From positions 5,890,001 to 5,954,000 of the forward strand of contig OZ038378.1 in NCBI GenBank assembly GCA_964036045.1: DNA of 64,000 bases. Reading direction: 5' to 3'. The position numbers and the translations under genes were made by a program. The notes below the pieces were generated by a model, which saw nothing but the letters and a program-made list of their open reading frames with translations, was not told the DNA's origin and did not search any database. Position 1 is the first letter of the stretch; each line of letters starts with the position of its first letter. Positions 1,131-25,440 of the stretch are shown here, piece by piece. Source of the DNA: Eutreptiella sp. 'Long Island Sound 2002' (Eukaryota > Protista > Euglenida).

Positions 1131-1199
1131 TCATGTACAAGTCTTGGCTGGGCCGTGAGGCATGTCTAGAAATTGCACCACGCACCAGTTTGGGCTGGG

Positions 1200-2530
1200 A
1201 TGTGACCCACCTTTCATGGTTGACCCCCCCGCCCGCCCTCCCCCAGCCCCTCCCCCTTCCCCACGACTACTTCTTTAGGCCTCCTACAACTCCTTCTATG
1301 CGAAGTGGGACCCCTTGGATGACCCCGAGTCCAGCCATATTACCACACACCCTTGCCTGGGCACGGTCTCCAGCTTCTGCGACGTCCAGGGCACCGCCAT
1401 TGTGGATGCCTTGGGTATTGCATGGTGTAATCTGCCCACTTTCAATGCCCCTGCCGTGTGGTTGCAGCTCACGGCGTGCAACGGGGCCTAACTCCACATG
1501 TCCTGCCTAGCTGCCCGGCTGCTCATTGACGGGGAGGCTCCGGAGCTCAACGTGGCAATCTATGGGCCCGTGCAGTGCCCCGGCGCAGCCTACCCTGCCC
1601 CATCGTGTGGCTTGACCGAGCCGACAGCCTCACCGCCCTCATCTCCGTTGCCAACACAGGCTCCACGGTCGATCATTGTGTGTGGGGCATTAGAGGGGAG
1701 GCTTGGGCGGACAGTTTGCACGGCGTCACAAACGTGATGTGCGTCGAGGGCTAGCCCCACTACACCAGCAATCTCACCTCCGCACAACCGCTGTTGGAGG
1801 GGCTACCGCTGTACAAGACGGTGTAATGCTGGGACCAGATCGTTGCTTTCACGGTGTTGAGTGCCGCCCCTAGGCTGAGGAGGTGTGCAGCAAGGCTCAC
1901 GCCCGTCAGGGGGTAGTTTGGGCACTTTCCCACGACGGTAGACGGTAGCAAGTCCCAGTGCCCTGGCTGCAGCCCCACCGCCACATATTACTCCACCAGC
2001 GCTAGGGCAAAGGTGTCAAACCCGGTCCGCATCACCTACATCTTCGGTAGCGACGACAGGGCGGCCGCATGGGACAAGCGGAGCACCAAGGCCCGTGTGG
2101 GTGACGGTCAAGGTGCAGTACCAATCGTTTCACGCCGGCACGAGCAACCACCGCCTATTGATCGACACCAGCCTCCCGATATCCGGCAGTGTCCAGCACA
2201 TGGCACAGCCCCGCTTGAAGTCCCCGTGCATGGGGAACAAAAGTGCGTTGGAGCCGCAAGGGTTCGGCTTCGAGGTCACAGGGTCGTTCATCGCCTCCTA
2301 CTTTGCAGTGGGGCCGGCTGGGGAATCCACGGCGCCGGAGTGGCAGTCCCTCGGTTGGTGCACGTACGAATCGTTGGAGCCCCAGCACCGGGAGCCAGGG
2401 GAGTACCGGTTGCCGGTGCCGGCGACCAAGCGCAGAGCATGTTGGACTTGGTGGTCGACTACAGTGAGCCTCACATGCCGTTGTGGTTGGTTGTCCGCGT
2501 GCCCGTGTAGTTGTAAACCAACCCAAGCCT
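1200..2530 (+). pseudogene. Non-LTR retrotransposon 3' remnant with RNase H-like domain
   Basis: Frameshifted motifs in RNase H order: TVDGSK (~1935-1950), ITYIFGSDDRAAAW (~2030-2070), VTVKVQYQSFHAGTSNHRLLID (~2100-2165; W..KV.SH.G...N..+D-like). Confidence 0.5.
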
Positions 2531-2649
2531 TGATGATCCAGTGCCCCCCCCCCCCCCCCCTCTTTGACCGGCTTCCCGTGGTGCAGTCGCCGAGGCCGAT
2601 GTATATAGATTGCCACGGCACTTGTCATGGGGCGAGCTAGCCACCAGAT

Positions 2650-3950
2650 AGCCAAGCCTCAAATGAGCTGACCCCAACAAGGTTATACACACCCTTTTAG
2701 CATTGTCTTGGAGACTTGGTGCTAGAGATACTTATGCAACCCACTTTCATACCATTGTAATGCTACCATGGGTTGAGAGCTCTTGAAGCTCTCACTGGTA
2801 GAGGGCATCATATACTGCCATACGCAGTGCTGTAAACACTCTTGGAGCAATTCAGGATGCAAGTTTGGTAATGATGGGGAGGACCAAAGGACTTTTGGGA
2901 GGTTTGGAGATGCTAGTCCTCATTGCCCAATCTGCACTGACAAAACCCCTTAGACAATGTATGGGCAGGCGGTCCCATTACATGTTGCATTCATCTTGGT
3001 GGTGGGGCGCAATCATCATTCACACTGTATGAGTTCTTTTGTTCGATTGGGATATGCCATGGACAAATCTAGATGAGATACGGTGTATTCATCTATCACA
3101 AAAGCTACAGTCCAACTCGAAAGTGCAACCTGAAGATAAAGCTATATGTTGGCGGGAGACGCCTGCATACTACATACAGTCTGTCCTGCCAGCCTTGGTC
3201 ACCGTGATCAAGCACTCCTTTGGCTCTCGGTTGCCCTGGTTGTCCTAATGTGTTCTATGTTTGTTTGGGATGTAGAGGTGGTGATACAGTCTTAGAGTCG
3301 TAGCCGGAGTCTTTTCCTGGGAATTGAAACCGCGTACCTCTTGGTGGTATGTGTTTTTTCCGGGGGGGGGGGGGGGCAAAATTCATGTTGATGCTGGCAT
3401 TGACCCCGGTGTCCTTGTAATATGCACAATCTTTGGCAAGCGCTAGCGTCACGGACATCCAACAAACCGACGGCTACGAACGATTTCTTGGGGAAGAAAC
3501 TTCGCTCGGCATGAGAGATGAAGCAAGCAAATTTCTCCGCCATCAGTGTTGTATGGTAGTGTATTTCACGTGTGTGTATGGGTGAGGAATTCATAGGGAA
3601 TCCGGCGGACCCATGGAGTCCTTGCATGGTTTCTTTGGGGATGAGGCCCTAGTAGAAACTTCAACCATGAGGTGCAACATTAGAGGTGGCATGTTGTGGT
3701 ATGCCCGAGGGAGTGAAATGTGCTTGTGACATTGTCACTGACCACCTTCTTTTGGTATTTTGCCGTCGATTCCACTTCGGGTTTCCCAAGATCTAGTCCA
3801 CCAAGCAACAGCATTTGCATCCACAATGTGGGTTATGTGACTGGGTGGGTCTAGAAAAGGGGCTTTTGCAACGGAGCCTTTCTAAAAGTGTAGTCTAATG
3901 AATGGTGGCTCAGAAATTAGGCTACAAAGGTGTATGTTGTAAGTCGTGTA
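2650..3950 (-). pseudogene. Degenerate LINE-type RT remnant
   Basis: Minus strand, in order: SVAKAP (DxAKAF-like, ~3870), GIPQ..MLHLMVE (~3660-3705), LPYNTDG (decayed YADD, ~3545-3565). Many stops and frameshifts. Confidence 0.4.
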
Positions 3951-4379
3951 ATGTTTTTTTTTTGCTGAAAATGTGAGTACAACAAAATCACATTGGTGAG
4001 TACTAGACAACTAGGCCACATTTACCGCAAAAAAAAAACCATTTACGAAAATTTGGTTCTCGCATTTGCAGTGGGGGAAAAATTGCACAACATACCACTT
4101 TTTGGTACTCGTGTTTGCCGCATATATGGTTAGAGTCTGCCACGGCAAACCGCCGACACCCTCGCGCGATAGGTTCGTCCGTGCTCCCTCCCGGAATGCC
4201 ACACCTGTGGGAGATGGATGCCCTCCAAGGGGCTTGGGCACCCGTCAACCACATATACACGGTGGCCCAAGAGGATTGACATGAGGAATTCTCTCCTGCA
4301 TGCGTACGGCCGACACGTGTGCTGGGTCACAATTCAGGCCTAGTACCTCACAGGGGGTTGACCGGCGTGGTGGGCGCAG

Positions 4380-7030
4380 AAAAAGCCGCCATCTGCCATG
4401 GGGCCTTACGGTTGAAACATCTGGGAGCCGCGGTCCTTGCCAGCCTGCCTAATGCAGTGGTTGGCTGCGCTCTTGGATCTGGTTGAGACCACGGGCCGCT
4501 CGCTGGCGCAATTGGTATCCGGTGGTTTTCTTTCAATCAGGTACCACACCTGCCAATGTGGTCCTCCTCTTCAATTCAGTCCACAGTTGCAATGTGTCTC
4601 CGTGTCCAATAAGTACAATGCGCCTCAATGCGCAATTGGCAGAGGACTACACTACCCTCATCGCCAAGGAGGGCCTCTCTGGCCCCTTGAACATGATGCC
4701 ATTGACGGTCCTCTCGGTGGTCTACTGTATGTGGGTGGGGGTGCGCCCGGAGGAGTGATCAAGGAGGATGAGACTTGGTTGCACCCCCTTGGCCTTTGGG
4801 TTCTGCCTTGCGTGTGGGGGGCTAGATGGCGCAGTGGTGACCTAGCTACTGTTGGGGCTCTGTTGCTAAGAGGATGGAAACTAGCAGGGATGGGCGTCAA
4901 CTAAAAGCAATGTTTCGACCTCATTCCCCCAAGTGGTTGTCCTCTGCGTGGCGACAGAGCTGAGAATGCCCCCCGCCCCCCCCGGTTTGTAGGGCCCGGG
5001 GTGCCATGTACTAGCATCTCAAGCAAGCCTTCACGCTCGCGGGAGGCCTCGGCTAGTGGGGGCACGCGACTAATGGCATTTTGCAAGGCTGCCCCCTCTC
5101 CGCCATCCTCGTCAATGTATTGACGGGGATATGGAAGGAGGAGATCGACTCCATGGTCGCCGTGTGTCTGTACATACGCATGCCCTGCTACCAGCGCGCT
5201 GGTTGCTGCCGAGGGACAACCTGGACGAGCGGGTGGGAGTGGTCTCACAGCCCACACGCCCCAGCTTGACGGCGTTGGGAGCCTAGGGGTACGCCGATGA
5301 CACCCAGGTGGTGGCTCTAGGCATGCCCCAACTACCGCGCACGGTCCCGCCAACACAGCGGTGGTTGCGGCTCACAAGGCAGGTAGTGAATGCGGACAAG
5401 TTGGCGTCATTCGTGGAGGAGTCTAACGACCCGACCCCGTGGACCCGACCTGCTGGGCAAGACCATACCGCGTGGCCAAGAGTTCAAACAGCTTGGAATG
5501 GGCATATGCATTGGGCGGCGGCGTGGGGTGGGGCCGGTGCTTGCTGCACTTGCCAACATTCACACATCGGATAACCCCTTGTCCATCACTTAATCGCATG
5601 TCCGTCATTTATTTCCCCCTTTGTGTCAAACATTTGTTCCCCCCCCATTGCCCTTCTTGTGTTTCCCCCTAGGGAAGCCTTAAGCTCGGCGCGTGCCGCC
5701 TCCTTCAGCCCATGGAGGCATGCCTCCCTGTCTAGCACGCAGATGAGCCCGTCAAACAAATTAGCGCGCCTTGCCTATAGTTCCCACAACGCGCGGTGGC
5801 TAAGGCCGTCACATAGCCTGTGTTGTATCTGCGGCCATATGGGCTGCATCGGTGCCCCTTCATTAGCAGGCACAAGATGGCCTCCTTTGCCGATGACGTC
5901 CGTGATGCGCCCCATATGGCCTGTAGCGGCCACGTCCCCAAGCCCCGGAACCTTGCCTCCTCCATGTCGACAAGGAAGACTCCGGGGTGCTAATGACGGA
6001 CAAGGGGAAAATGATAGATAAGGAGGCAATGACGAACATGGGAAAAATGACGACGAGTGGGGAAACGACGGAATGGAAAATGACGGAGAGGGTGGAAATG
6101 ACAAACATGGGGGAAGCAACAGACACATGGGATGACGGACGGGGAAATGACGGGCATTGTGTGCTTTGGCATTTTCCTGTTGAGGCGCCCAGCACCTACC
6201 GCTGGGCGTTTTGCTGCAATTGTCAGGGTGGGGAGATTGCGTGAGGGGCTGGCATACAACCCCTTTGGCCGGACAATGAATTGAGCACAAGTTTTGAGAA
6301 GACGGTGTTGCGGGGGTATTGCTGTGAAAACGGGGAGGGCTAGGGTGGGTGGGGGTGGGGAAGGGGCATTGGAAGGGGGAGTGTGCCTGTTGGGGTGTGT
6401 GCAGGTGTGGCGGCAAGGCATGGCTCGGTCCACTGCATTGCCCCGTCTTACCCAGACATCCTCCTTGGTACACAATGAGAGTGCCATGGTGCGCCCCACC
6501 TCCCCCCCGCGCATTGAGCATGACAAGCACAAACTTGGGCTTGCCTGCCTGGTGTGGACATGTGGTGACCCGAGTACCCTAGGAGTGTTCGGTGGCGCAA
6601 GGATAAGGGCACTGGAGGCGAAGCTGCCTGCGAAAGCGGGTCGCCATGCGCGGTGCAGGTGCTCGGGGTTGTTGGCGAAGGAGGTGGATCCGGCGTCAAA
6701 ATTGCCGCATTGCAACCGCCGGTCCAAGCACATGTGCAACAAAGCAGAAAGCACAACAAAAGCTTGGCCTTGTGTTGTGTAGCTCCCATGCCCCCTTGAC
6801 TGGTTGCCTGCGTTGGTTGGTTGCCTGCGTTGTGCAGTGTGTGGAGAACAACGACACCCAAACTATAGGAGCTAGATAACACCCCTATGGGCACCCTAGG
6901 ATGCATAACGTCAAGGCCCGCGAGCACCCGTGCTTACTCAACAGTGTCCTCGAGAGGAACGGCTATCATGGTGGGTGTAAACGTGAAACAGCACCTGCCC
7001 CGAACGCGAGATGACCCACTGCCTTCCATC
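4380..7030 (+). mobile_element. Decayed non-LTR retrotransposon pol (RT followed by RNase H-like region), interrupted by small insertions
   Basis: MPLTVLSVVYCMW (~4695-4735), MGVN*KQCFDLIP (~4890-4930), NGILQGCPLSAILVNV (~5072-5120), GYADDTQ (TAC GCC GAT GAC at 5290-5301), VVNADK and EFKQLGMGI (~5380-5510), and VNVKQH near 6975-6990. Confidence 0.85.
5990..6170. repeat. Purine-rich minisatellite (GGGAAAATGACG-type units)
   Basis: Repeated GGAAA(A)TGAC motifs inside the RT element. Confidence 0.8.
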
Positions 7031-7289
7031 TTGACAGGCGAAATTCCCAAAGGGGGGGGGTGCGACATGCGGTCTTTGACGCAGCCATGTACATAGTGCG
7101 CACACAGTGCGAAGTTTTGTATGCGGGCAACTATCTCAACCGTGGCTTCGACCCTTCAACAAGGGTTTGTCGTTCCATGATAGGGTTTTTCCTTAGCTTC
7201 TCATGCATTCGGCATATGACACATTTGAATTATTATACATGTTCCCCATTTTCACCCATTTGTACCCGTTTTCAAACGCTTGCACGCTG

Positions 7290-7500
7290 CAGTGCCGCCC
7301 CTCGAGGTGGCGTGACGGATTCCCATGCTTTGGTGTGGCCCATTGAGGTGGGGTGATGCACTCGCATGCTTTGGCGTGGCCCCTTGAGTTGGGGTTAACG
7401 ACTCCCACGCTTCGGTGTGGGTCCTTGAGTTAGGGTTCAGGACTCCCACACTTGGGTGTGGCCCCTCGAGATGGGGTTAAGGACTCCCGGGCCCCCACAG
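7290..7500. repeat. Tandem repeat, ~41-42-bp unit, ~5 copies
   Basis: CCA(T/C)GCTT(T/C)GG(T/C)GTGG(C/G)(C/T)CC-type core at ~7323, 7365, 7406 and 7447. Units contain TTGGGGTT/TTAGGGTT. Confidence 0.85.
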
Positions 7501-7569
7501 CTGGGGTCTCGGTCTACTTCTCGCTCTAGCTTGTCGGTAGTACCACTACCAACATATCCCAACCACAAG

Positions 7570-7615
7570 CAAAACCCAAACCCAAACCCAAACCTAGGCC
7601 CAAACCAACCGCTAA
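7570..7615. repeat. Short (CCCAAA)n telomere-like tract
   Basis: AAACCCAAACCCAAACCCAAACCTAGGCCCAAACC. Confidence 0.7.
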
Positions 7616-7989
7616 ACTTGTTGAAACAGAAGAAGGAGACGAATCACTGACGGAAAAAGAGATGCACACCAAGTTAGATAATTAAATCATAACATATTTC
7701 ATATGTGTGCACAATAACATGGCACACCCCATCACCCCAACCCCAAACATGTTGATTGGTGGATTGATCGGTGTTCTGCAAAGAGCTCCAAGGAGCCTCA
7801 AACAATATACACACAACTCGCTAGGGGGAATGTTTGCCCGGCGCGTGCCCTGCGCGCTACTTTTCGATTAAGTATCCCGACTTTAGCCCCAGATTTTACA
7901 CTCTTATGGAGAAGCCCCCCAAGTAGACCACGTTGCATTGCACACGTTCCCTACAAAGCACGTGGCATAATAAAGCAATATCAGTGAAT

Positions 7990-8830
7990 TCAGCAACTCC
8001 AACTGTCATCTGTATTGTACTCATCAAACAACATTGGTCCCACAAGTGTGGGTGTCAATACATTCAGTAGAATAGTGCTCCTTACACTCATCACAAACTT
8101 CGACGGTGGAGCGCTTCTGGCAGCACAACACACACACTTCTGCCTCATCCTCTGCCTCATCTTGCGTGCCACAACCGAGCAAACGGCTGCTCAATGCGTG
8201 CCCTATAGCACCCGTGCACGTCATTGTAACATTGTTGGCGGGGTGTCAAAGCGCCATTCTTTCTTCCAATGAATGGCACAATGACATGAATGCGGCCTTT
8301 ATAAGCACCATCATGGCCCCCAACTTCGAAATCAAAGAAATCACCTTGGGCACGAGAAGGTCCATACCCATCCCAACTCTCTGCAAAACATCTGCTGATG
8401 TCCTGGGGGCCAAGGGGCAAATCCATATAATGTTGCCCCACATATCAACGGCAACAGTCCACGGGTGGGGCACGGGTCACAAAAGATGCCCGGTGAATCC
8501 CCCCTGAACCAATCAACCGCACCGGTGTTCACTTTGTTACGGCGGAGGATTTGTATATAAAGCATGGCAACGAAGGGTTGTTGTGCCGGGAGGACCTCTT
8601 CCGATACCTCTTTTTTGTGGAGCAGAATCCAAGTTGGGACAACTATGCCTACATGTCTAATTCAAACTCAAAAATATGTGATCTTACGCCGGTAACGCCG
8701 GCGGATGTTACGATTTGATATCAACGTGGTCCGTTGCGAAGACGCCAACACTTCTTTGATTATGAAGCAGGTAATCACGGTGGCGCTTACCAGGGTCGCT
8801 TGCAGAATGCTGTACTCTGAGGGGATGTTT
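7990..8830 (-). pseudogene. DDE_Tnp_4 (PIF/Harbinger-IS5/ISL2EU-like) transposase pseudogene with C-terminal Cys/His finger
   Basis: WTVAVDMWGNIIWICPLAPRTSAD, then a frameshift to GHDGAYKGRIHVIVPF..LTPRQQCYNDVHGCYRARIEQPFARL. This fits the family pattern D..Y...P....T..Q..YN..H...R..+E..F..L. It is followed by CVLCCQKRSTVEVCDECKEHYSTECIDTHTC. Confidence 0.75.
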
Positions 8831-9632
8831 GTCTAGCGGCGACCACAGCATGCTTGGCGTGCTACCTTTGTGCCAAGTATCTTATTTCTAGCCCCAAGTT
8901 TATCCTCACGTAGGGAGTCAACTTGATAATATATTTCAATGGGTTCTAGACAACAAAACATTGTACCTATGTGGCGGATCCCGCAAATGCTGTCCGATTC
9001 TAGGAGGGGAATCCTGTTGGCTCCATCATGTATTCGGTCTGTCCATTGACTGGACCGTTGGGAGCGTGTATAACTATGCTATGTGGGTGAAGGGGAAGGG
9101 ATGGGTGGAGATTGATGTTGAACGATCCGGGGCTATGGAGCGGCAGCTATATCTGAAATACTGGAGGGCCATTCACAACAAAGACCGCCAGGCAAAGAAT
9201 CTGACATCGGTGGGGGGCTGTGTATCGAAACCCTTGCTGAAGGTCGGGGACCGGTACATGGTGGTTGTGTTGTGTATCCTTCACCTGCTGATGTGTGTGG
9301 GGAAGTATTTGATGGGTTTCATTAGGAGTGGGGCAAAAAAGCTCAAGCCGGCTAGACGAAAGAAGATTAATGCTGTACTGAAGCGCTCCAAGACAGGGAT
9401 GACCGAGGGAGGTGTCGGTGCCTTGGATGGCGAGGAGACATGGAACCTTCTGAAAGCATGGGCTAAATTATCCAAACTCCTCCGTGTGGACGTCAAGACC
9501 CATAAGGTAGTGACAGGGATATACACCTTGCTATGCAACATGTATAGCACCATATTCAATCCAAAAGTCCTCAAACGCCGTAAGATAGCAAGGCGCTTCC
9601 ATGCAGCCATCATGCCAAATGTGCGCTCGTTG

Positions 9633-11668
9633 TGGGAGGCGCGCGCTCGCGATTTTTTCGCGCTTGGCAAAGGTGATAAGACGCCAGTTGCTCACAATAA
9701 TTTCCAATGGCAAGCGGAATTACCCAATCCTTTCAAAGTATGCAAAAAACGAATTTGCGGATGACCCGAGGGGTCCAGCCCGTCTTCAGGAGCTATCGGC
9801 CGCTTGACGCGGGGTATCCGTCTTTCTGCTGCAGCTGAGGACACCGCCGATTACCGAAAGCCAGCCCAACTATGTTACACAAACAGCGCTTCAACTGGGT
9901 GCACTTCCGTTGATTTTGAGAAAGATCAAGCGCCGACATGGAGATCAATCAAGATCCGCATTGCCTGCGTGCCAGCGCCGAAAGACTCAAAAAGAGCTTC
10001 CGTTCTCCGTTTTAATGTTTTCAGAAGCCTGTCTGTCTCAACAGCCGCCGGATTTGGATACAACGAGTTCCCTGATAAGTTGACTCGCAATGCCTGCCCG
10101 CCAGCGCCGTGTGACTCAAGATGAGCTTCCGTTCACCGTCTTTCCAATGTTCGAAGCCTGTTGCCTCAACCGCCGCCGAATTTTGATAAAACAAGTTCCC
10201 TGGTAAACAAATGACTCGCAAGGACTGCCCGCCAGCGCCGTGTGACTCAAGATGAGCTTCCGTTCACCGTCTTCCGATGTTCGAAGCCTGTCTGCCTCAA
10301 CCGCCGCCGGATTTTGATAAAACAAGTTCCCTGATAAACAAATGAGCCGGAAGGACTGCCCGCCAGCGCCGTGTGACTCAAGATGAGCTTCCGTTCATCG
10401 TCTTCCGATGTTCGAAGCCTGTCTGCCTCAACCGGCGCCGGATTACGATAAAACAAGCTCCCTGACAAACAAATGACTCGCAAGGCCTGCATGCCAGCGC
10501 CGTGTGACTGAATATGAGCTTCCGTTCAACGCCTTTCCAATATTCGAAGCCTGTCTGCCACGACCGCCGCCGGTTAGTGACGAGACGAGCTCCCTGATGA
10601 ACAATTGACTCGTTCCCCGAAGCGCGTGCTACAGCACACCACTGCGGCCAGTAGCAACAGCCTCTACTAAAATGAAAACAACAACGCAGCCCGTTCCTAT
10701 GCGTCGCTCTGTCCCAGGTGCTTATTGATGATCAACAACTCCATCCGCCAGCGCCCAAGATGACAGCCACCGAGTTTGACAGCGCTGCAGTACACCATTG
10801 CAGCCAGGCATGAACGTGGACTGCCTCCAAAGCCTACATCGACCATCCTTCCGAGCACTCCACTTACGCTGCACCATGTCCAGTCCTTCTCTCTGAAGAA
10901 CTGATGACCAAGCAACTCAAGAAGTGTTTAAACTACCGCCGACTGTCCACTGCATCTACTTCTGATCTAAATCTGAATCTGAATTTTGACTTAACACCAG
11001 AGCCCTGCCCTTTGGCTGGCAGCCCTTTAAATACGTCCTGGAGCCCACAAGAATATCCAGGTTTGCCCTCTTTTTGATCGCTATGACACCATGAATACGT
11101 TTTCAGCCTCTATATAACTTATGACAACTCAGACACATGGGTTTCTCTCCTGACACGAACTCAGGTCCCCTGACGCCACACCTTGCAGATGTTTTTGAAT
11201 AACAATGCATTCTAATTTTCCACTATCTTTTCGCTGCTGTGGAGTATGGCCGACCCAGGGGCAGGAAACCCGGCTAACCACCGGGGCAATACACCCCATA
11301 GTAGGCCCAGAAACACAAAAGCAAACCACAAGTTTTCCACCGCCCCTCCAGCAGTTGACTGCATGGAAACAAACATGGAAAAACACACAGAAAGAAAAAC
11401 ACAGCCTGCACTCCCCAGTGCACCTGCATTTTTCTGTGCGAGCTGAACCCAGCCCCCTGCTTACAACAAGCCTCAGTGCAACCAATTCATCACCAAAACC
11501 TACCAATCAATCTACACCAAGAAACCATCAGAGCCATCTTTTTCGCTTTCCTAGGCGAACCGCCTCCGTGATATATTCTGTACTCCAAGTAGTGTACATA
11601 TTCTCACGAGGTCTTCCTTTGGGGGACGTCAGCCCCAGAACAAGTTGATGCGGTTAAGAACATTCAAA
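9633..11668 (+). mobile_element. 2,036-bp non-autonomous retroposon-like insertion with 16-bp target-site duplication
   Basis: AAATGTGCGCTCGTTG occurs at 9617-9632 and 11669-11684. A short A run precedes the second copy, and the host frame is restored on excision. Confidence 0.85.
9960..10620. repeat. Tandem array of 131-bp monomers, ~5 copies, no spacers
   Basis: GCCAGCGCCG(TGT/AAA)GACT starts at 9970, 10100, 10231, 10362 and 10493. Confidence 0.95.
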
Positions 11669-12049
11669 AAATGTGCGCTCGTTGCATTTCCTGTGGTCGC
11701 AAAAGGATGCGTGCCGCGTTATCGAAAATATCAAGCCATGGGGGTTGGCCATGTTTTCCGGGGCTGTAGTGCAATCGATGAATGCCGTTCTTCAGGACAT
11801 CTTTCTTGTCGCCTCAGCACGGGGAGGTGGGTGTGGGACAAAGGTTGAAGGGGAACTACGGTTGTCGCGCCAAGCAATGACACGGGCATTCGTGTACAAG
11901 GGATTGCCGCGGTGGATTGGACGGGAGAATGGAACACCCATTCATATTCAGCAGCTTGTCCAAACAATGCGGGATTTCCAAGTAGACTTGGAGTAGGTGT
12001 GCCCCCCCTCCCCATCACCACTGCCATGAGTGAAACAGCCTGCTTTCAC

Positions 12050-13600
12050 CGTTGCTGGTAGTGAAATTGTCCACTTTCACCATTTGAACCGTTGAAACTT
12101 GAAGGTGAAACTTGCACAACAACCTGCTTGTTGCAATTGCATGATGCCATTCCATCCTAGTTTGTTTTCTCTAGGGTCACTCTCAGTCATGTCAAACATC
12201 CTCAAGAATTTGGATCCGAGCTTAGTTCGTTTCAAGCAATCCCTTCACGCCGGAGGCATGCCGGCTGTGCCACACATGCAGCCCCTTGTTGTAATGACAC
12301 AACCACAACCAAAAGTTGAAGGCATGTTTCCCCTTCATTCACACATTCTCCAACGCCAATGGCTGCACGCTGAGGGCGCCCTTGCACGTGATAAACCCAA
12401 GTGGTCCTGGCTCAACGGCATCACGGTGAAGTGTCTGTTCCGGCGATGTCTGGCACTATGGATGCGGCGTGAAGTCCAATATGATCTGCAAGTGAACGCT
12501 CACTCCTCCTAGTCAACAAAGGCATTCGGGCTAACTGAGTCGGCCAATGTCAAGGCTTTGTGCATCGGCAAGAAGACAGACCCCACGTTCCGAATGACCT
12601 GTCAGGAGTGACGCTATTTTCAGCCGTGGGGACTTTGATGGAGTGGGGCACGCGGAAGCCACGGATGAGTTGTACTGGTGCGGGCAACGGTACTGGCTGT
12701 GGGCCCAGATTCTCTTCTTCCGATTTCAATACCCACGTGGCTGGTTTGATGCAAATGCAAGTTTGCCGGCATACAAACAAGGTCCCGCATCATTGCTGAC
12801 CCATGGTGCCACCATTTCTAGTGGCTATAAAAGGACGAATAGCAACAGGAGGTCATCTACCGCTAGCGACTGCATCAGCGCCGGCCACAGCCATGGGAAT
12901 GGCTTCCCCTCGCCTGCATGATGCTAGCAGCACACCTGACCATGCTGAGTGCTCAGAGGTAACAACCCCATTTGTTGTGTGTCTCCACAGTGAAACGGCG
13001 GTGAAACTGCGATGCCGAGGGGTTAAACAAAATGTATTTCACCAGTGCAAGGCATGGTTTCACAAGTGAAAGTGCTACATGTGATGTTGTGTTCGTTGTT
13101 CTCTCGTGTCACACAACCATCGAATCGGCAGCAGGAGTGACATGGTCGTTAATGATGAGCGAGGGTGTGGTGTTCTAGAGGCTAGCCAGTGGCCTGCGAT
13201 GGGCGTGACGAAGTGGCTGGCATAGAACGGCCACACGGCTGCTGGAAAAGAGATGAAATCGCGCTTGCATTGAGAATTGACCAAAGCCCTCAATCAATTG
13301 GGGGGAATGGGATCAGCAAGGGCCAAGCTGCAAGGGCGGCTTGGCTTGGGGCAGGCAAGGACTTCTGCAAAGAAGTGTAAAGAAGACGAATGATGCACAA
13401 TTAAGACATGTCCAATGCCCCGATGACCTGGCTACCGACGAGTGCATACACAAGACCTTGGATCGGCATACATCCTTGGTGCGCACATGTTTGATCATCG
13501 CTGGACTCTATTGAGTACGATGGCCAGACATTGAAGCTTTGCTATTTCCCACTTCAGCTGGGTGCCACAACCACCATCCACGGTGTGCGGGGTGCACTTG
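12050..13600 (-). pseudogene. Degenerate LINE-type RT remnant
   Basis: Minus strand: GIMQ (~12920), QSLAVDDLLL (~12845-12875, catalytic xDD position) and PGPLGF (GGLG-like, ~12395-12410). Confidence 0.4.
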
Positions 13601-14217
13601 GAGTACCGGTGCCAGCATCGTCGGTAGCGTGCCTTGTTGTGGTTGCAAGTGGAGCACCGTGTTTGCTCCATGATTGATATATGGCATCGTGATGGGCGGG
13701 AACACCTTGAATTGGGTAGCTTTTCTTTCAGGAGACGGTTGCGTACAACACCACCAGACTGCAAGTTGATGTTCACCCCACCACAATGGGTTGGCATTGC
13801 GGGTGGTGTGGGTTCCGACGTCAGGCGTACCGTTGTACCGGTTCCCCCCAATCGCATCTGTATGAGCAGCGAGGATGGACGATGAGACACGATGGGTGAA
13901 TAAACCACAGCCTTGGCTATGCATGGTTCACCATGGTGCACAACGGTAAATCCATGTGGAATGGCATGGTTGCACGTGTATTGCGTGCGTACCTGTGTCC
14001 TGTTTGTCATGCCTGCAGCACTCACCTACTGCCGCAATTGGCTGATGGAAACGGATGGGGGAGGGGGAGAGGCCGAAGGTGCGAATGCAGGTACAAGATG
14101 GGGAGATGGAGAGCAAGCAGATCAAAATCCATGATGAGGGTGCTGTATGTGAAGCCTTGGGAAGCGGCCTAGCGCCAACGAGAAGAATTGCGCGGTGACG
14201 TCCATCGTGTTGCTTAC

Positions 14218-14465
14218 TGTGACGGGTTATGCCCATCCTTGGGTCACCCGCAGCCGCAGGCAGATTTAGGCTTAGGTCGCGATCGCGCGCGGTGCTGAAA
14301 TTCAGGATTTTTAATCAAGAGAAACTGAGATTGTATAGTGCAATTACTGTGTATTATCGCAGGGTATTCTGTTATGAGAGACGGATGAACAATTTCGAAA
14401 CACTGGGAATTATTCAAGATCATTGGTGCAGTGCTGTCCGTGTCGAGGGATATTGGAGATAGAGA
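14218..14465 (+). repeat. 5' direct repeat/LTR (shared 248 bp; full LTR may extend to TGTGACA at 14549-14555)
   Basis: Identical to 17283-17530 except one substitution (AAACACTGGG vs AAACTCTGGG). Confidence 0.95.
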
Positions 14466-14572
14466 ACTCGGTGTGATTTCGTGGTCCTGAATACAAGAGT
14501 TTCGCTGTTCATCTAGGACAGCATTGCGAGAGTTCGTTCCTGGAGTGCTGTGACAGTGAGAGTCCGACGGAG

Positions 14573-15049
14573 ATGCCTGCTACAGTGTATGCTCGTGGTC
14601 TCGCTACGGAGTTGGAGAAGTGTGAAGTTCGACGAATCGTGAACCATGAAGAGAGAAAACAAGCTCGCCAAAAACTTCGCAACGAGAGGTACGCAAGGGC
14701 GTGTGCAAATCTCCTGCCGCCACATTACAAAAGTGTTCACGTTCATGGTCTGAGTGTGGAAGAACAATGGGAATGCGGTTGCGGAGGTGTTCAACAGGCG
14801 CAGGCCATTCAGGCTGATGAAGAGAGCGAGGAGGCCGCCATTCGTGCGGCCAACAGTGAAAAGGAGTCTGCTTGCTCTGCGGCAGCAGGGCACGAAGCCC
14901 AACTGAAGAAGAAGATCCGTCGCGGCGGCTACGGAGCCCGCCGGTGTCAGAGAACAGAAAATCATTCAAGCAAAAATTCTGACCTGAACTTCGTCAGAGA
15001 ACAGAGTCTCAGAGTGCACCCTGAGAGTGCCCAGGCGTGCACCTCGTGA
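14573..15049 (+). CDS. Hypothetical 158-aa protein of the LTR-like element (charged, Ala/Glu-rich; gag position)
   Basis: Intact ATG-started ORF 17 bp after the putative LTR end. No CCHC knuckle or known domain recognised. Confidence 0.5.
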   Translation: MPATVYARGLATELEKCEVRRIVNHEERKQARQKLRNERYARACANLLPPHYKSVHVHGLSVEEQWECGCGGVQQAQAIQADEESEEAAIRAANSEKESACSAAAGHEAQLKKKIRRGGYGARRCQRTENHSSKNSDLNFVREQSLRVHPESAQACTS

Positions 15050-15080
15050 GTGCCCGGGCGTGCACCTCAGGAGTGTCCAA
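15010..15080. repeat. 23-bp tandem repeat (GAGTGCCCRGGCGTGCACCTC)
   Basis: Units at ~15025 and 15048 plus partial flanking copies; spans the ORF stop. Confidence 0.8.
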
Positions 15081-15094
15081 GAAGATCAGTTCAC

Positions 15095-15310
15095 TCAAGC
15101 GCGCTGGCGAAGGCGCTAAAGGTGTGCACGTAGGCGAGAAAGGCAGCGCGGCATTGCTGATCGCTGGCGCCGCTGCAGGAGAGCGCTGACAGTGAGCGCT
15201 GATGCGGAGTGCAGCGCTGCAGGCAAGCGCTTTTGGTCAGCGCTGCGTGCAAGCGCTGAATGACAGCGCACACAACAAGCGCTGCAGGAGAGCGCTGCTG
15301 GAGTCAAAGC
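15095..15310. repeat. Cluster of palindromic AGCGCT/GCGC motifs
   Basis: Many AGCGCT hexamers packed into ~220 bp. Confidence 0.8.
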
Positions 15311-17282
15311 AGTGAAGGAGAGAGGGGCCGGGTTGTGGCAAGGAAGATAAACATAAAGGTTGTGTAGTGTCTTGCGTGTGTTCGTGCACGCTTGCGCAGT
15401 GGAAAGCCACAGAGGTGGCAGTTTTCACTGCATAACCGGGTTTCAGGCTCAGCTCATTCTCAGTTCGTGTCAGATTCATTACCACAATCACTGCTAGGAC
15501 CATCGTAGCACTGGACAGCTCTCTGGGTTGACGCGCGCCTCCCCTGAGCCTCGTGCTTGGGCTGGAAGGCTGTCAGCGCGTTTGCCTTTGTGTGTGTTTT
15601 TTTTTCCAGTGTTTGTCAAGTTTTATTTTTTGTGGCTGAATCTAGCCCAAATGAGCTTGATGGGAAAAACGGGTTTGACACCAAGCACCTTAGGCGCTCA
15701 AAAAGCACTGTTTTTGTGCTCAGTGGCTCACACTGATGTGCAGCCTTGCTTCAGTTTTTTGAATCTGAGGCCTCAGGCCCAGTTTTACACTGGCATGATT
15801 TTGAGCATTTTGCTCAGGAGATGTCAACCCAATTTTGGCTTGTTTTGCTGACAAGAGGAATATTTTTCAAAAAACTTCTGAATTTTTTTTCAGAGTCACA
15901 GTGTGGCTCTTGCTTGTTTCTTAACTCTTTGCTCCTGTTTCAGAGCTAGAGCACGCCTGTGCATCTGCCGGTGCTCTGCTCCCATATCTAATCTATGGGT
16001 AAACTGATTATATTTTTTTTTGTACCCTCCCCACCCACTGTCCCAGTTTGGGACTCATATACTCTGCCACTGCACAGTTTCGTTGCAGAGCCACTGCTCC
16101 TGCAGTGACTCCAGCCCCCCCACTGAGGGCATGCGTGCCTCAGTGGGCACCTACACTCTGGGCCAGGGTGTAGGGGAAAATTCTTCTTTGTTATTTTTTT
16201 TACAAGAGAATTTTGGGGTGCAGGTTTTGCCTGAGGGCAGCACCCCACGGTGGGAGGGGGGAGAGGCCACAACAACATATGTGCTGCAGGCCCGTGTACT
16301 GTTTACTTGCAATTTTTTCTGGGGACGCTCAGGAATTTTTTTACTAATGTATGCACGTGTGCACACTTGCGCATGTGTTTGTTGCATTGTATGCATGCAG
16401 GTTCGTTTGCCCTAACCTTCTGATTTTCTTACCCTTTCTCCTTTGCTTCCCTGTTTCCAGGTCAGTGAGATACGATGGGGATCAATTTTCAGATGTCGAC
16501 ATATCAAAAATACTTTTGGATGAGTCCAGCCAATTCAGGTCTGTGTTCTCGTTTCTGCACCAGCCCCCCCCATACGTCAGCGCTCCTATTTTGTTTCTCT
16601 GTCCTCTGCCTCAGAGTGATGGAGAGAGTGCTACTCAAGATGCTCAGAAGTAATTTAATTTTATATATTACTCAAGGCCGCAGCAGAAGTTTTTTGTATA
16701 TTACCAATAAGGGTCTCTATACCCTCTTGGGCAGTCAGTGTGTATTCACTTTCTTTTTTTGTGCCCTGTTGTTGCTGCTTTTGTGCCTGTTTGTCAATTT
16801 TTTTTTCACACTTCTGAGCAGGGTTTTTTTGGTGCAGGAAATTTTTTTTGGACCAGACAGATGGCATGGACGATAAGTAGAATCACGTAGAGCTGTTTTG
16901 GATTTCAGTTTTTTGGAGAACTGCCCCCCTGAGTTTTAGGCCAGGAGTTTAGAGCAGGATTTTGCTTAGGTGAACTTCTGTTTGCAAACTTTTAGTGCTT
17001 TCTCAGGAATTTTTTCCCATAGTCAGCTGGGTTTTTAGGTGGCAGTGAAACCCCCCCACTCGGAATGGTGTGTGGAGGTACCCGAAAAAAGGTAGAGAGG
17101 CCTTAGTTCAGGACTTCGGGCCTTGGGAGGGATATTGTACATTATCTTGAAGCAGTTTTGCATTTCTGTCGCGATTGGTAATCAATTTTTGGAAAATTTT
17201 TTGCATAAGGCTGTGCATACCCCTGGGTTTCTGTCAGCCCTTGCAGGTGGCCTGGTGGCTGCGGCAAGGGCTTGGCGGGGGG

Positions 17283-17530
17283 TGTGACGGGTTATGCCCA
17301 TCCTTGGGTCACCCGCAGCCGCAGGCAGATTTAGGCTTAGGTCGCGATCGCGCGCGGTGCTGAAATTCAGGATTTTTAATCAAGAGAAACTGAGATTGTA
17401 TAGTGCAATTACTGTGTATTATCGCAGGGTATTCTGTTATGAGAGACGGATGAACAATTTCGAAACTCTGGGAATTATTCAAGATCATTGGTGCAGTGCT
17501 GTCCGTGTCGAGGGATATTGGAGATAGAGA
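17283..17530 (+). repeat. 3' direct repeat/LTR, truncated after 248 bp
   Basis: Matches 14218-14465. It diverges after ...GATAGAGA and runs straight into the long ORF. Confidence 0.95.
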
Positions 17531-18952
17531 CTCCCCAGTCTGGATCAGGACGAGCAGATCGAGAGGCGCACGTGGCGTGTCCCTGCGGGCTACGCAGCTG
17601 TGGGCGCGGTTCGCACCATCATCAAGCTTATCTTTGATGATGGCATCATGGCCGTTTGCCCCGCAAGAGGCATCATTGCCAACCTGACGATGGACCTCAA
17701 CAGGCTCAAGGAGGACCCAATTGCATACCACCCCGCTGCTGCCTACTGCAAGACAGTGCGCAAGCAGCTTGACTCGGCTCCATACAAGGACGCGCTCCCC
17801 CACCTTGCCCAGTACCTGAGCTCCACTGGGAAGCTGCCCACGCTCCTTGCGAGCCCTGCCATGAGGATTGCCATCTCTACAGGCACCACGGCGAGCTGGA
17901 AGGCTCTGTGCGACTCCCTTGCCACAACTGGCGCCACGGATGATCCGAAGGAGACCAAGAAGAAGATCGCAGACGCCGGGGTCAAGGTCCACACTGTTTT
18001 TTATATCAGATTGTTTCACCGTTGCGAAGACAATTTCCAAATGGCTCTTCTGCCCTTCAGTGTGCTTGGCCTGTCCGCCCTCTCTGTCGCGGAACCCGGT
18101 GACACCGCGGAAACTTTACTCGTGAAAGTGCTCGGTGACATCAACAACGGCCTGGAGAAGTTGGGCTGGACTCACCTTTCGGACAGGGGCCTGTCTGAAG
18201 CTGAATTCATCCAAATTCACCCTGTGTGGTACAAGCCAAAGGACGCCGCCCTCACCATCAGGGCTGGTGCGACAGCCAAGGGCGCATTCGCCACGAACCA
18301 GGCCCTGTTCACTCTCGATGCTGGCACCCCAATTGCGATGCAGATTGCCGCAGACTTCCCAGCTGTGCTCAAGGGGCTGATGGCCCGTGAGCCCCTCTGC
18401 GATGAGGCGCTTCTGACTGAGCTCGCATATGGCGCGTGCTTCATCAGGGCATACCTCGTCAAAACAGGCTGCGTCGACAGGGAGTTCGAAGTTGTTGAGA
18501 CTGACCCACCCGATGACGCGGTCATCAGGGCTGCCTTATGGGCCAGAGACCGAAAGCCACCCGCCACTGCAGCGGTCGGCCTCCTGATCCACCACTGCAA
18601 ACTGAAGCATGCTAGCAACCATGCGGTTGGAGGTAGCATGCTGCCAGTCGCTGTGCTCACTGCGTATGCACGGGCGGTCGGCATGCCAGAGCAAACCTTT
18701 AAAGGTGCCCCTAAGAAGGTGCGCAAGGCTGCCACCAGTGCCGTTTACATGAGTGTTCATGCGTTCTCAACGCTCGGTGCGCTTATGCTGGCCCACAACT
18801 CCACTCTACGGGCCGACGCGGAGATGAGGGTCATCGGCCCGCTCACACTTACCATCCATCATCTTGGCTCCCTCACGGCAACATGCAGCCACACACCCTC
18901 TCCGTCGCTCAGCCCTCTAATCACCGCCACCGTGTCCCCCCAACGCCATTGA
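17528..18952 (+). CDS. Stop-free frame, putative negative-strand RNA virus (qinvirus/Chunqiuviricetes-like) nucleocapsid EVE; N-terminus truncated, last ~30 codons read into a neighbouring element
   Basis: Frame is open from 17528 (RLPSLDQDEQIERRTWRV...) and the first in-frame ATG is at 17648. It has GC3-rich codons and no introns or stops, unlike all flanking remnants. C-terminal motifs FIRAYLVKTGCVDREFEVVET, LLIHHCKLKHASNHAVGG and VYMSVHAFSTLGAL resemble, from recall, qin-like N motifs (K+NW..NHH.G; H..ST..L). The ORF is certain; the viral identity is tentative. Confidence 0.55.
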   Translation, partial: RLPSLDQDEQIERRTWRVPAGYAAVGAVRTIIKLIFDDGIMAVCPARGIIANLTMDLNRLKEDPIAYHPAAAYCKTVRKQLDSAPYKDALPHLAQYLSSTGKLPTLLASPAMRIAISTGTTASWKALCDSLATTGATDDPKETKKKIADAGVKVHTVFYIRLFHRCEDNFQMALLPFSVLGLSALSVAEPGDTAETLLVKVLGDINNGLEKLGWTHLSDRGLSEAEFIQIHPVWYKPKDAALTIRAGATAKGAFATNQALFTLDAGTPIAMQIAADFPAVLKGLMAREPLCDEALLTELAYGACFIRAYLVKTGCVDREFEVVETDPPDDAVIRAALWARDRKPPATAAVGLLIHHCKLKHASNHAVGGSMLPVAVLTAYARAVGMPEQTFKGAPKKVRKAATSAVYMSVHAFSTLGALMLAHNSTLRADAEMRVIGPLTLTIHHLGSLTATCSHTPSPSLSPLITATVSPQRH

Positions 18953-19370
18953 ACCCCTCACAACCCCAGCTTGACCCCAACCCCCATCACTCCCGCGCGC
19001 CCCCTCTTCCAAAGGACAGCATGGGGCCCCCTCCCGCACTGAACACACTTCTTGCCGCCTCTGACCATGCAAACTTGCAAAGCATCTTGTAGCCACAGCC
19101 ACACCCGCACTCACTCCCGCTTCCGCTCCCTTCCCAAGTCCACTTGAGCGAGATACCGAGGCGGGGATGTCCTGCGACATCCAACAGCCAAATGGGTTGC
19201 AGTCTCTGGGGCCGGCCCTGAAATGCCCTGGAGTGCAAATGAGCATCATAGTGGCGGTGCAAGAATTGTATGGGGATGTGGCTGGCGCTCGGTGTTCCGC
19301 TAAGGAAGTAGGCTCCTCCTGACCAATGACGCCGCAGGGCAGGCCATCCGCGGCGCCATTCAGCATTAGT
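18860..19370 (-). pseudogene. Non-LTR retroelement fragment abutting the 3' end of the long ORF
   Basis: Composition shifts abruptly to C-rich at ~18855. The minus-strand translation (ATMMLICTPGHFRAGPRDCNPFG) resembles the decayed post-RT/RNase H family seen at 1.2-2.5 and 6.4-7 kb. Confidence 0.4.
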
Positions 19371-19899
19371 AGCTCGCGATGGCCCTTAGGCTGCCGCTGG
19401 CTGAAATCTTGCGGAACCTGCCCATGACTCTATAACTAAAAACAGTTGGGCCACCGTTGATCAAACTCGGACCCAAGAGGGTGGGCGCGTGCGCGTGAGC
19501 CGCGGGGATCAGTTACAATGGCTTCTCCACCTTTTGCTTTCCTCCGTAATTACGGCCCTATAAGACATATCCACATCTATTGTCCCGTAATTTCATTCCC
19601 TATGGTTGAAATGCTAACAGCAAGGGAGACTACCGCAATACGCCTCTTCGTCAAACCACAACTTCTTGATTCACCGTCACGCTCATCTTCCACATTACGT
19701 CGAAAATGGATCAAACTGCGTGTACCATTCCCACAACAGATATTGGTTCCGCCATGAAGGTATTTTCACCCAAAGTCCCTGTGTGCGCTCTCAGCAGCTC
19801 AATGAGTGTCCACTACCAAATGAAATTGGACTCCAACAAGACATTGGACATTCCGTTGATGCAGCAACGATGTCTCAGGCACAAGACTTGGAGAAATTC

Positions 19900-20260
19900 T
19901 CTCGCAGGAGCTACGGGACTCCAAGAACACTCTACGACTCACAGCCAACAACCACACATGCCGTTTATCAACCAGCGAACGGAATTGGAATATCCTTGCC
20001 TTGGATAAAAGAAACAAACTTCGTGAAGACTTACCGGACTTCCGTAACCCTCCGTGATGGGCGGATTATCACTACTGAATGGGGTCAACCGTCAGCGTCG
20101 TTATCGGTTCATGCAGCATCAAAGCCTCAGGTACAATATTCGGAAAAATTTTCCAACTAGGAGCTACGGGACGTCTGCAACACTCTACGACTCACAGTCA
20201 ACAAGCACATGTCGTTTATGAACCGCCGAATTGAATTGGATTATCAGTGCTTTAGATGAA
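19900..20260 (+). repeat. Diverged direct duplication, ~254-bp period
   Basis: GGAGCTACGGGAC...AACACTCTACGACTCACAG occurs at ~19907 and ~20161. Confidence 0.8.
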
Positions 20261-20459
20261 TGATATAAACTCTGAGAGGACGTACCGTACTTTTTGTAGC
20301 CCTCCATGACCTGTACCACCACAACTGCTCATGGCATATGTCAATTGGCTCAAGACGGTGAATCATCATGCAACAACGCACCATCTCTGCATTCATCGTC
20401 GAACTGAAATATCTATAAAGTTTCTCCTTTGGAGTGCCCGCACCGAACTACAGCCAAAC

Positions 20460-21560
20460 TTCAAAACGATGTTCATCCATGTTCATGTGTTATTGGATCT
20501 ATGTGCTGCACAACACATCAAAAGCATGTTAATTTTGTTTTTCATCCATTTACCTCTCCCATTTCATGCACCATCCCCTTTTATCCATTTCCCTTATTTC
20601 CCCATTTTGATCGTTGTTATTGGCCACATTACAACTATCCCTCTGCTCTTTTGCCATGCACCACCTTCCCTTCAAAACGATCTTCATCCATGTTCATGTG
20701 TTATTCCATGCACATCAAAGCATGTTAGTCTTGTTTTTCATCCAATCCCCCTCGTGCATCCATTTATCCTTTTCTTATCCCTTTCTCTTGTTTCCCTACT
20801 TTGATCTTTGTTATTGGCCACTTTAGTTTGCTACTTGGCCATACAAAACTGGGCTGTATTTCATAATGTGTGTTTTCTTCCATCCCATCCTTGGCCATGC
20901 ACAATTTACCCATCAAAAAGTTTGTCCTTAATTTCTCCCTCATATTTCATGCACCATCCATCCATCCCTTTTTTATGCATTTCATTTATTTCCCGATTTT
21001 GATCGTTGTTACTTGCCACTTTAGTTTGCTACTTTGGGTGCTCCTTTGCCATACACCATCTCGCCGTTGCTCACGCTGTGTGTTTTCTTCCATCCCATCC
21101 TTGGCCATGCACAATTTACCCATCAAAACGTTTGTCCTGAATTTCTCCCTCATATTTCATGCACCATCCATCCATCCCTTTTTTATGCATTTCATTTATT
21201 TCCCGATTTTGATCGTTGTTACTTGCCACTTTAGTTTGCTACTTTGGGTGCTCCTTTGCCATACACCATCTCGCCGTTGCTCACGTTGTGTGTTTTCTTC
21301 CATCCCATCCTTTGCCATGCACATTTTACCCATCAAAAAGTTTTTCATTCATTTCTCCTTCCCATGCCATGCACCATTCATCCATCCAAAGCATGTGCAT
21401 CTTCCTCATGTGTTTTTTATTCCTTCCCCACTTTACCATGCACGATCTACCAATCAAAAAATATTTTCATCAGTTATTTCATTCTTGCACATCACATAAC
21501 ATCAAAACCATCTTCCTTTAGGCTTTCATCTATTTTTTTGTCATTTCTCGTATTTCCATG
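20460..21560. repeat. Pyrimidine-rich satellite with 210-bp higher-order unit
   Basis: CATCCCATCCTT(G/T)GCCATGCACA at 20881, 21091 and 21301, with more degenerate subunits upstream. Confidence 0.92.
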
Positions 21561-24029: not shown

Positions 24030-25440
24030 CTATGCATGGCAGCCCTGCTGGTCCCAAAGCGGCAGAAGCGTCTGCACCAAAGCGACGGAGACCTCGGGTC
24101 CCAAGGTGGCGGAGGCCCTTGCCCCAAAGCGGTAGGGGCCCTGGTGGTCCCAAGTTGGCAGAGCCCCTGCCGTGCATATGTCGCTCATCGTACCACCTTT
24201 GCCGCACTTGCAAACATCCAAAACATCCTTTTTTTCTTTCGACTGCTGGGGAGTCACTATGCATCAGCTTTCGTGAGCCAAAGACTTTGGAGGGTATGCC
24301 CTTCTGCCGGCCCTCATCTGGCTTATGGTCCAAGCACGGCTGCCGGTGATGGTCCATCTTTCTGATTTCTGTGTCTTCCCCTCAGCCCCAGTCTGACATT
24401 TCAACCGTTGGTGTGATGGTATAGGCCTTGTCATGAAAGCACATTTCTTGCCTGTGCTGCAACTGGCCTCATTGCGCAAGCCATGGCAGCCACGGTACTT
24501 CCTGGCCTGAAGTTGCCAAGCCTTTTCTTAGGCCCGCACGTTCGCAGTAGATCGGTTAACGGTAGAAAACATCCACTCTCTGCCCGTGTGGCATTGTGCC
24601 ATCTTCTAGAATAAGCATCATAGAACCTATGTGGCCCCGCGACTTGTGCGAAAAGGCACACTAACAATAGATTAGCTGTTTGACCCACAACACCGCATTT
24701 TGCCAGCCTTTACCAAACTCGGGGGAAACACGTGGATCCTAATTTATCACACCGCCCTCCTAAAGTGTCAACAGGAAATTATCAATGACTGGTCCAGACC
24801 CACAGCCTGGGTGAATGGAAAGGCAAAGTCTATGACTTTGCAACACATTGCGCCTTCGCCGTGTATCACCTACAAGCAGGATGAAGATGTTTGGTCTGCG
24901 TTTTGGAACTGCTGTTACCCACCGGTCCTCTCTGATTTTGTCTACACGGTGTTGTGGTCTAAACTTAAAGTCCAGCAGCGGCTTTTGCCCATCTCTCGCG
25001 CAAAGAAATTTCCCCTCTGCTACACAAAAATAGAATCGATCACGCATGACACTATTGTAAGTTTTTCCCACACGTCTATGTGTTGATGTCAAAAGCCGTT
25101 GGGCAAGACACCGCCACTTGGACACTAGGAAAATTAGAAGCCACGAAAACAATAGATTCTATAATATTGTGGAATGCGCAGAAGGCACGGTGGGGGGGGT
25201 GAGGTGTGCAGCTCATTGTTTCCACATCCCCACCCTTGGCGCGTTTTTGTGCGCCTGGATCAATAATATCCAGGACTTGGTACAGTGGGAGCCCCTGGGG
25301 CACGTTGCAGAGCCGTTGTTGCAATTCACGCATTTTGTACAGGAGTATCGTGAGACTGAGGTCCTGGCTGCCCCTACCCTGTCCTGGTGGGGCCAGAATG
25401 GCCCTACGTTGCCCCCCTCAAAAAAGAAAAAATAATCTGA
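24030..25440 (+). mobile_element. 3' end of a LINE-like element (zf-RVT region and A-rich tail)
   Basis: VWSAFWNCCYPPVLSDFVYTVLWSKLKVQQRLLPISRAKKFPLCYTKIESITH (zf-RVT-like, 24890-25050) and AAAAAGAAAAAATAA at ~25420-25436. Confidence 0.6.

Follow-up and report, generated by a model that had tools for sequence, protein, structure and literature searches.

What is the 474-codon stop-free frame at positions 17528-18952 (plus strand), how did it come to lie where it does, and is it used? The frame stands in a window of 64 kb (the whole stretch of DNA that was analysed), and an earlier note, made from the letters alone, had taken it for an intact frame resembling the gene of a qinvirus-like nucleocapsid (N) protein, a candidate endogenous viral element (EVE), recent or selected. 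Our main reading, to which we give a probability of about 0.8, is that a circularly permuted and clipped copy of a qin-like N gene is fused to a cut host 3′ LTR, that an LTR integrase likely inserted this copy and the LTR element in one piece, and that the copy is likely read as an antisense, leader-spliced RNA and not as protein. The virus-derived frame of the earlier note is retained here; that note made no mention of a permutation, of a chimera between virus and LTR element flanked by a target-site duplication, or of an antisense transcript with a trans-spliced leader.

The open frame and its viral family

The frame is the longest undamaged one in the window, as had been claimed for it: the second-longest has 290 codons, and in 30 shuffles in 1-kb blocks the longest frames reached 167-248 codons. 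The GC3-rich character described before is also found, with a GC3 of 0.69 over codons 1-441 (0.74 for codons 1-152, 0.47 for codons 153-171 and 0.67 for codons 172-441), the low value belonging to an AT-rich 19-codon stretch in the middle of the frame (GC 0.37). The frame is real and coding-like, with this short patch of non-coding-like character. It is virus-derived, yet it is not an intact gene: besides the AT-rich stretch, its 5′ end has no ATG, its halves are swapped and about 30 C-terminal residues of N are absent. Nor does the viral part extend to 18860, where it had been thought to end; it stops at 18847.

Elsewhere in the window, the 290-codon frame (8892-9764) has no Pfam match and looks like a decayed transposon gene, and a decayed LINE-type fragment (24676-25086) gives a weak zf-RVT match (E = 0.0028, under the curated cut-off). 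Diverged tandem repeats with periods of ~250, 210 and 130 bp occupy 19852-21387 and 9957-10612, and 37476-49255 and 51350-64000 form a segmental duplication of ~12 kb with 94-98% identity, interrupted by insertions.

An exhaustive search of 1.84 billion representative proteins with the window protein returned 17 proteins, namely the window's own protein and 16 relatives (P0003-P0018), which together make up a family of environmental, qin-like N proteins that has neither a name nor a Pfam model. Ten of the 16 were looked up; none has an informative name, and they lie on short contigs of 0.9-2.1 kb, a length that fits a small viral segment (1.6-1.9 kb in qinvirids, PMC10721934) and is no proof of one. 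P0003, the closest relative (48% identical), and P0007 may mark close kin of the source virus, or may be other EVEs. A family alignment and profile were made from the 11 full-length relatives (407-525 aa), leaving out five fragments, and this profile matches the frame twice (E = 2.7e-56). The NH..G motif and later H singled out in the earlier note are invariant columns in all 11 (N171, H172, G176 and H214 of P0009).

Other sequence searches were negative. Pfam gave no significant match for the frame (best E = 0.05) or for 13 relatives, a PDB sequence search with the frame protein gave no match, word-indexed protein searches gave nothing beyond the window protein itself or query inputs, and the ESM Atlas gave no match above 0.85. 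The rest of the 64-kb window holds no second N-like piece. The search for homologues and a linked polymerase gene that the earlier note had proposed yielded the 16 protein relatives, and no related locus or viral contig in IMG/VR and the JGI metagenomes.

The connection to named viruses comes from the predicted fold of relative P0009 (pLDDT = 74.7). Foldseek of this model against predicted viral structures gave seven matches at E ≤ 0.001 (9e-9 to 3e-6, all with probability 1.0), all seven being small-segment proteins, and the next row is a yue-like protein at E = 9e-3. Four of the seven carry "qin" in their names and one is unnamed; the other two are Beihai sesarmid crab virus 4 and Xinzhou nematode virus 3, the latter of which we take to be a qinvirid. 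The former is called Qinviridae in a published figure legend. The sequence identity of P0009 to named qinvirus proteins is only ~17%. Against solved structures, VIA placed the N proteins of mumps, parainfluenza 3 and Sendai viruses at the top (Z = 5.8, 5.5 and 5.2), with mononegaviral N in 10 of 50 rows, although Z scores below 8 are weak and under the safe level of the tool. Foldseek of the same model against the PDB gave nothing at E ≤ 0.001, and its top 13 rows contain three mononegaviral N chains at E = 0.8-1.4. The ICTV profile (PMC10721934) states a structural relationship between the N proteins of qinvirids and those of paramyxovirids. A single-sequence fold of the window's own protein reached a pLDDT of 35, which is unfolded-grade and weak evidence either way. 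With the modelled fold of the family (P0009) matching that of qinvirid nucleocapsids, and the window tied to the family by the profile match, a qin-like nucleocapsid origin of the frame, as first proposed in the earlier note, is supported at the level of predicted structure, the name being reached through P0009 and so one step removed.

Permutation, the LTR element and a proposed route of insertion

The two profile matches lie in swapped order, and the frame reads as the C-terminal part of N, a 50-nt AT-rich spacer and the N-terminal part of N. Frame residues 3-156 correspond to profile positions 244-399 of 427 (17531-17990, plus strand; domain E = 7.6e-35) and residues 195-421 to positions 5-224 (domain E = 5.3e-21), and profile-profile comparisons agree. 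The C-terminal part lacks ~30 terminal codons and the stop, with 136 residues after a conserved P as compared with 164-238 in 11 relatives. The N-terminal part comprises 269 codons from a natural Met (18041-18847, plus strand); this Met aligns with the start of P0003, and in both proteins 36 residues lead from it to a conserved NG. The spacer (17991-18040, plus strand) probably corresponds to the untranslated 5′ end of the virus's N RNA. It contains a T-tract followed by AG, 33 nt before the Met, which is a candidate sense-strand acceptor, and in none of the four RNA runs does a contig break there. The first five letters of the spacer (17991-17995), ACACT, are also those with which the published euglenid leader begins, a match too short for a call of either cap borrowing or a viral terminus. 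At the far end, the frame continues for 34 codons through host DNA (plus strand) after the right-hand CTTAC described below, up to the stop at 18952.

The outer ends of the viral insert would fit together. Two conserved anchors straddle the break, with 29 residues at the end of the window's copy and 17-18 at its start, that is 46-47 in all, and the same spacing measures 43-54 residues in 13 of 13 relatives that span the break. The outer ends therefore abut within 0-7 codons, and the insert is accordingly one turn of a circle that contains the 5′ untranslated stretch together with the greater part of the N gene, minus ~30 C-terminal codons. A gap of the size of a primer-binding site at the permutation point fits P0007 (54 residues), the closest of the relatives spanning the break, and a zero gap fits the other 12 equally, so that the two circular routes given below cannot be told apart. 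The chance of an open frame across the internal join is ~12% (35% without a stop × 1/3 for phase) and selection is therefore not needed to explain it; the open frame is explained by the youth of the insert rather than by selection.

The insert forms the right-hand end of a 4.6-kb unit, TGTGA...TCACA, that lies between two copies of CTTAC. The left copy (14213-14217, plus strand) is followed by the start of a 5′ LTR (14218-14465, plus strand), which begins with TGTGA and is identical in 247 of 248 bases to 17283-17530. The latter (plus strand) is the 3′ LTR, which breaks off after 248 bp; there the virus-derived DNA begins, with a 4-base microhomology (ACTC) and a 1-base offset at the join. Between the two (14466-17282, plus strand) are the remaining 5′ LTR and the non-coding interior of a repeated LTR element; the 3′ end of the 5′ LTR is not fixed, with 15900 as the best candidate, the sole candidate primer site after it is GTCACA then TGG at 15895-15906, and a purine tract (17274-17282) stands directly before the 3′ LTR. 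On the right, the viral sequence itself ends in an integrase attachment-like end (18838-18847, plus strand), CCCGCTCACA, one base off CCCGTCACA, the inverse of the LTR start, and the second CTTAC (18848-18852, plus strand) follows directly after 18847. The 10-mer TCACACTTAC occurs once in the 64-kb window, with a chance of ~5e-5 in a 60-nt zone, and CTTAC occurs once in 17531-19400.

Ends of the type TG...CA, flanked by a duplication of 5 bp, are characteristic of insertion by LTR integrases. The unit has inverted TG...CA ends, a target-site duplication within the 4-6 bp range, the purine tract and direct repeats at both ends, the 3′ repeat being cut at 248 bp; from the TGTGA/TCACA ends and the CTTAC duplication we infer that element and opened viral circle went in together, as a single chimeric cDNA. 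Of the abrupt mobile-element junctions reported earlier on both sides of the frame, the left one holds, and the right one is a target-site duplication in single-copy DNA and not a high-copy element.

The element is likely non-autonomous. Its interior has no recognisable gag/pol genes, and Pfam gave no match for the one 190-codon frame there; as the element is repeated and without recognisable genes, its enzymes would come from an autonomous relative. In run X4 the summed depth of the interior is 596-14,945, compared with 29-48 in unique DNA. The stretch 15627-17300 belongs to a very high-copy family, and 15014-15310 contains tandem units of 23 and 13 nt. A relative of the element, ~94% identical and with a different LTR, appears as 1.8-2.8 kb contigs in the RNA runs X5, X7 and X9, which indicates that the element family is transcribed. 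An 18-nt LTR pattern found five loci, none similar beyond 20 bases, and no second full element to confirm the 5-bp duplication; no empty insertion site was present among the joints listed in the runs compared, and Rfam gave no match in 13000-21000.

Eight of the 17 sequencing runs listed were compared with the window, namely DNA-like X1, X3 and X4, X15, and RNA or likely-RNA X5, X7, X9 and X12; their contigs show presence only. X1, possibly the window's own source, covers 17501-20488 in one contig with 0 differences (depth 48.8). In X3 and X4 the insert is likewise covered, again with 0 differences and at the depth of unique DNA, and X15, at a depth of ~3, covers neither the insert nor the right flank and is hence uninformative. 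RNA contigs of other studies show 0 differences over 1,328 (X5) and 1,209 (X7) bases. X4 splits the insert into two contigs at 18563-18589, where 22 letters before 18585 do not match the window; a sample-specific change or an assembly effect is possible. Virus-derived sequence is joined to host DNA at genomic depth, and the 0 differences and near-identical LTRs (1 difference in 248 bp) point to a recent event. An endogenous and recent insertion is supported, in line with that part of the earlier description; a selected N gene finds no support, the copy being permuted and clipped, and the dN/dS comparison proposed for it has no variation to work on, since the covering runs show 0 differences.

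For the origin of the locus we propose the following sequence of events. During an infection, the reverse transcriptase of the element family would have copied the N RNA, and the copy would have passed through a circular form in which codon ~420 became joined to the 5′ untranslated end, either as a DNA circle or by a jump from the 5′ end of the RNA to its 3′ part. The circle would have been opened once, at a site mimicking an LTR end, and its other end joined to the broken 3′ LTR at the 4-base microhomology. Integrase, acting on the genuine LTR end at the left and on the mimic at the right, would then have made the 5-bp duplication.

The microhomology at the left join and the absence of the rest of the 3′ LTR would also suit the repair of a break, by which the viral copy entered an LTR element already in place, the remainder of the 3′ LTR was deleted and the look of integrase action is accidental. 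However, this account leaves a TCACA end and a matching CTTAC 4.6 kb apart to chance (~5e-5), and we regard it as very improbable. The possibility of an assembly chimera or contaminating viral sequence, which the earlier note had named as fatal to its own proposal, might draw on X1 being possibly the sample behind the window and on the two X4 contigs with their non-matching letters, but both junction regions lie, with 0 differences, on a single contig of X1, the RNA contigs of other studies (X5, X7 and X9) cross from viral sequence into the LTR, and the DNA depth is the same as that of the unique flanks. It is already largely refuted, and we give it next to no credence. Insertion of element and viral circle as one unit by the integrase is the reading that we carry forward.

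A probable antisense transcript and possible functions

RNA contigs point to an antisense RNA (17384-18710, minus strand) with a euglenid spliced leader at 18710 that reaches at least into the 3′ LTR. The RNA runs carry four study codes, two of them from wild estuaries and possibly from one campaign. Contigs end at 18711 in all four RNA or likely-RNA runs, and none of the four has depth beyond 18711 in the single-copy flank, which argues against DNA carry-over; in the other direction the contigs extend into the LTR to 17384 (X5), 17503 (X7) and 17517 (X9). The extra letters at 18711 in X5 and X9 are G and 7-8 A (8-9 letters), and on the minus strand these and the C at 18711 equal the 3′ end of the Eutreptiella leader published in PMC3621762. 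In X12, 22 extra letters match the leader with one change, which is also used in a published leader primer, and they may be primer-derived; X7 has five extra letters, and the leader match is displayed in three of the four runs only.

The site of leader addition is an AG preceded by a pyrimidine tract (18711-18722, minus strand; 8 of 10 pyrimidines), the native match being short in X5 and X9, and this acceptor ranks tied second of the 138 minus-strand AGs in 17531-19400. As the contigs carry no strand information, the strand rests on the leader letters, and by these the 17384-18710 RNA is most likely trans-spliced and antisense to N, its orientation agreeing with the antisense transcription of mosquito-type EVE loci. 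The leader marks the host as a euglenid, the type of host that had been suspected. A reading of the ends at 18711 as sense poly(A) was rejected, given a non-templated G before the A run and ends on the same base in three runs, on the acceptor AG. The four RNA runs gave no sign of a sense mRNA: none of them has a contig over the final 240 bases of the sense frame (18712-18952), and no RNA contig showed a colinear viral order. The antisense RNA has its first AUG 26 nt past the leader, and this opens a frame of 155 codons (18217-18684, minus strand). Of 1000 synonymous shuffles, 37 reach 155 codons from the first AUG and 429 contain a frame of this kind at any position, and the frame is probably incidental.

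As to function, we lean towards a young unselected insertion with the antisense RNA as a by-product. The antisense RNA adds weight to a small-RNA idea, by which the locus would be a working antiviral memory: the RNA, by itself or as a duplex with sense RNA driven by the LTR promoter, would be processed to small RNAs able to silence the virus, which would be the reason for the spread of the insertion. It would be complementary to the N mRNA over ~1.2 kb and is found in cultures and wild estuary samples with 0 differences, and two reports describe antisense EVE piRNAs that restrict virus in mosquito cells (PMC6797480) and control of virus by Dicer and Argonaute in Leishmania guyanensis (bioRxiv 10.64898/2026.08.09.743808). 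However, sense RNA and a cognate virus were not seen in the runs and metagenomes examined, cryptic acceptors are expected wherever a pyrimidine tract and AG occur, and zero variation is also consistent with a single widespread lineage that carries a young insertion, which makes such a memory possible and the lesser prospect. More speculative is the whole picture of a euglenid with heritable, sequence-specific immunity to a qin-like virus, in which a non-autonomous LTR element would have captured circular viral cDNA, integrase would have opened it at an LTR mimic, and a trans-spliced, stable antisense RNA would feed silencing and would have spread through wild populations.

The earlier note had also thought of the locus as a source of N protein, which finds no support in a permuted and clipped gene and an antisense RNA that stops inside the frame. 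One may still imagine a domesticated protein, with LTR-driven sense RNA giving a permuted or truncated N (303 residues from Met 18041) that would block viral nucleocapsid assembly; the frame is open across the internal join, the T-tract and AG stand 33 nt before the Met, and the LTR promoter region is just upstream. Yet none of the four RNA runs has a contig that covers 18712-18952 or breaks at the spacer acceptor, the frame would be open across the spacer by chance in ~12% of cases, and the unfolded-grade single-sequence model is weak evidence either way. With neither sense RNA nor variation for dN/dS seen, a domesticated N is unlikely.

Comparison with known systems

To our knowledge, nearly all known qinviruses come from samples of mixed invertebrates. 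Two hosts are confirmed, both trypanosomatids (PMC10496375, PMC11108086), and infection of euglenids was not verified according to a 2021 review (PMC8061765). Our literature search, with most subscription papers and supplementary EVE tables outside it, found no negative-strand RNA virus or EVE of euglenids and no report of permuted EVEs; the accessible parts of PMC9651163, PMC6955108 and PMC10888975 contain no prior case. The locus provides good evidence that qin-like viruses infect euglenids, and a nuclear copy that ties such a virus to a euglenid-type alga bears on the true hosts of qinviruses.

The fold and length class of the window family are shared with the small-segment N of Qinviridae (Muvirales), such as that of Sanxia qinvirus-like virus 1. 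The window differs in being a DNA copy in a host genome with swapped halves and a clipped C-terminus, known here from this copy alone, with no polymerase segment found. An endogenous qinvirus-like sequence has likewise been described in Camponotus floridanus (PMC6540820), where it is a polymerase fragment in an insect, with no permutation or transcript reported in the accessible text. RNA-virus fragments are also fixed in euglenozoan genomes, as in Leptomonas and Blastocrithidia, where tombus-like EVEs similarly adjoin a mobile element (TATE), and in Euglena gracilis with its pisuviri-like EVE (PMC9599419); a polymerase-like EVE is described for Bigelowiella (bioRxiv 10.1101/2021.05.09.443335). 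These EVEs of Euglenozoa come from positive-strand-type polymerase genes, whereas the window has a negative-strand nucleocapsid gene with an LTR-integrase signature.

A parallel to the capture route is found in insects, where viral RNA is described as recombining with LTR elements in reverse transcription, giving linear and circular DNA that is integrated and yields virus-restricting antisense small RNAs (PMC6797480, PMC5857290). The LTR-virus chimeras and antisense EVEs of Aedes and Drosophila share with the window the recombination with an LTR element, the integration and the antisense transcription (PMC6797480), and circular viral DNA is an intermediate there (PMC5857290), as proposed here. 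At the window locus, capture and antisense RNA are either directly seen or strongly indicated. The window differs from the insect EVEs in that its host is a euglenid-type protist and its RNA appears to be leader trans-spliced, and with the antisense RNA, the question of immunity through EVEs in non-animal hosts can be put directly to the test in an alga that can be cultured. It differs also in that a single event has kept its two ends, its duplication and a permutation of exactly one turn, so that one capture is preserved almost untouched, and with it a probable route by which a non-retroviral gene enters a germ line through a circular intermediate.
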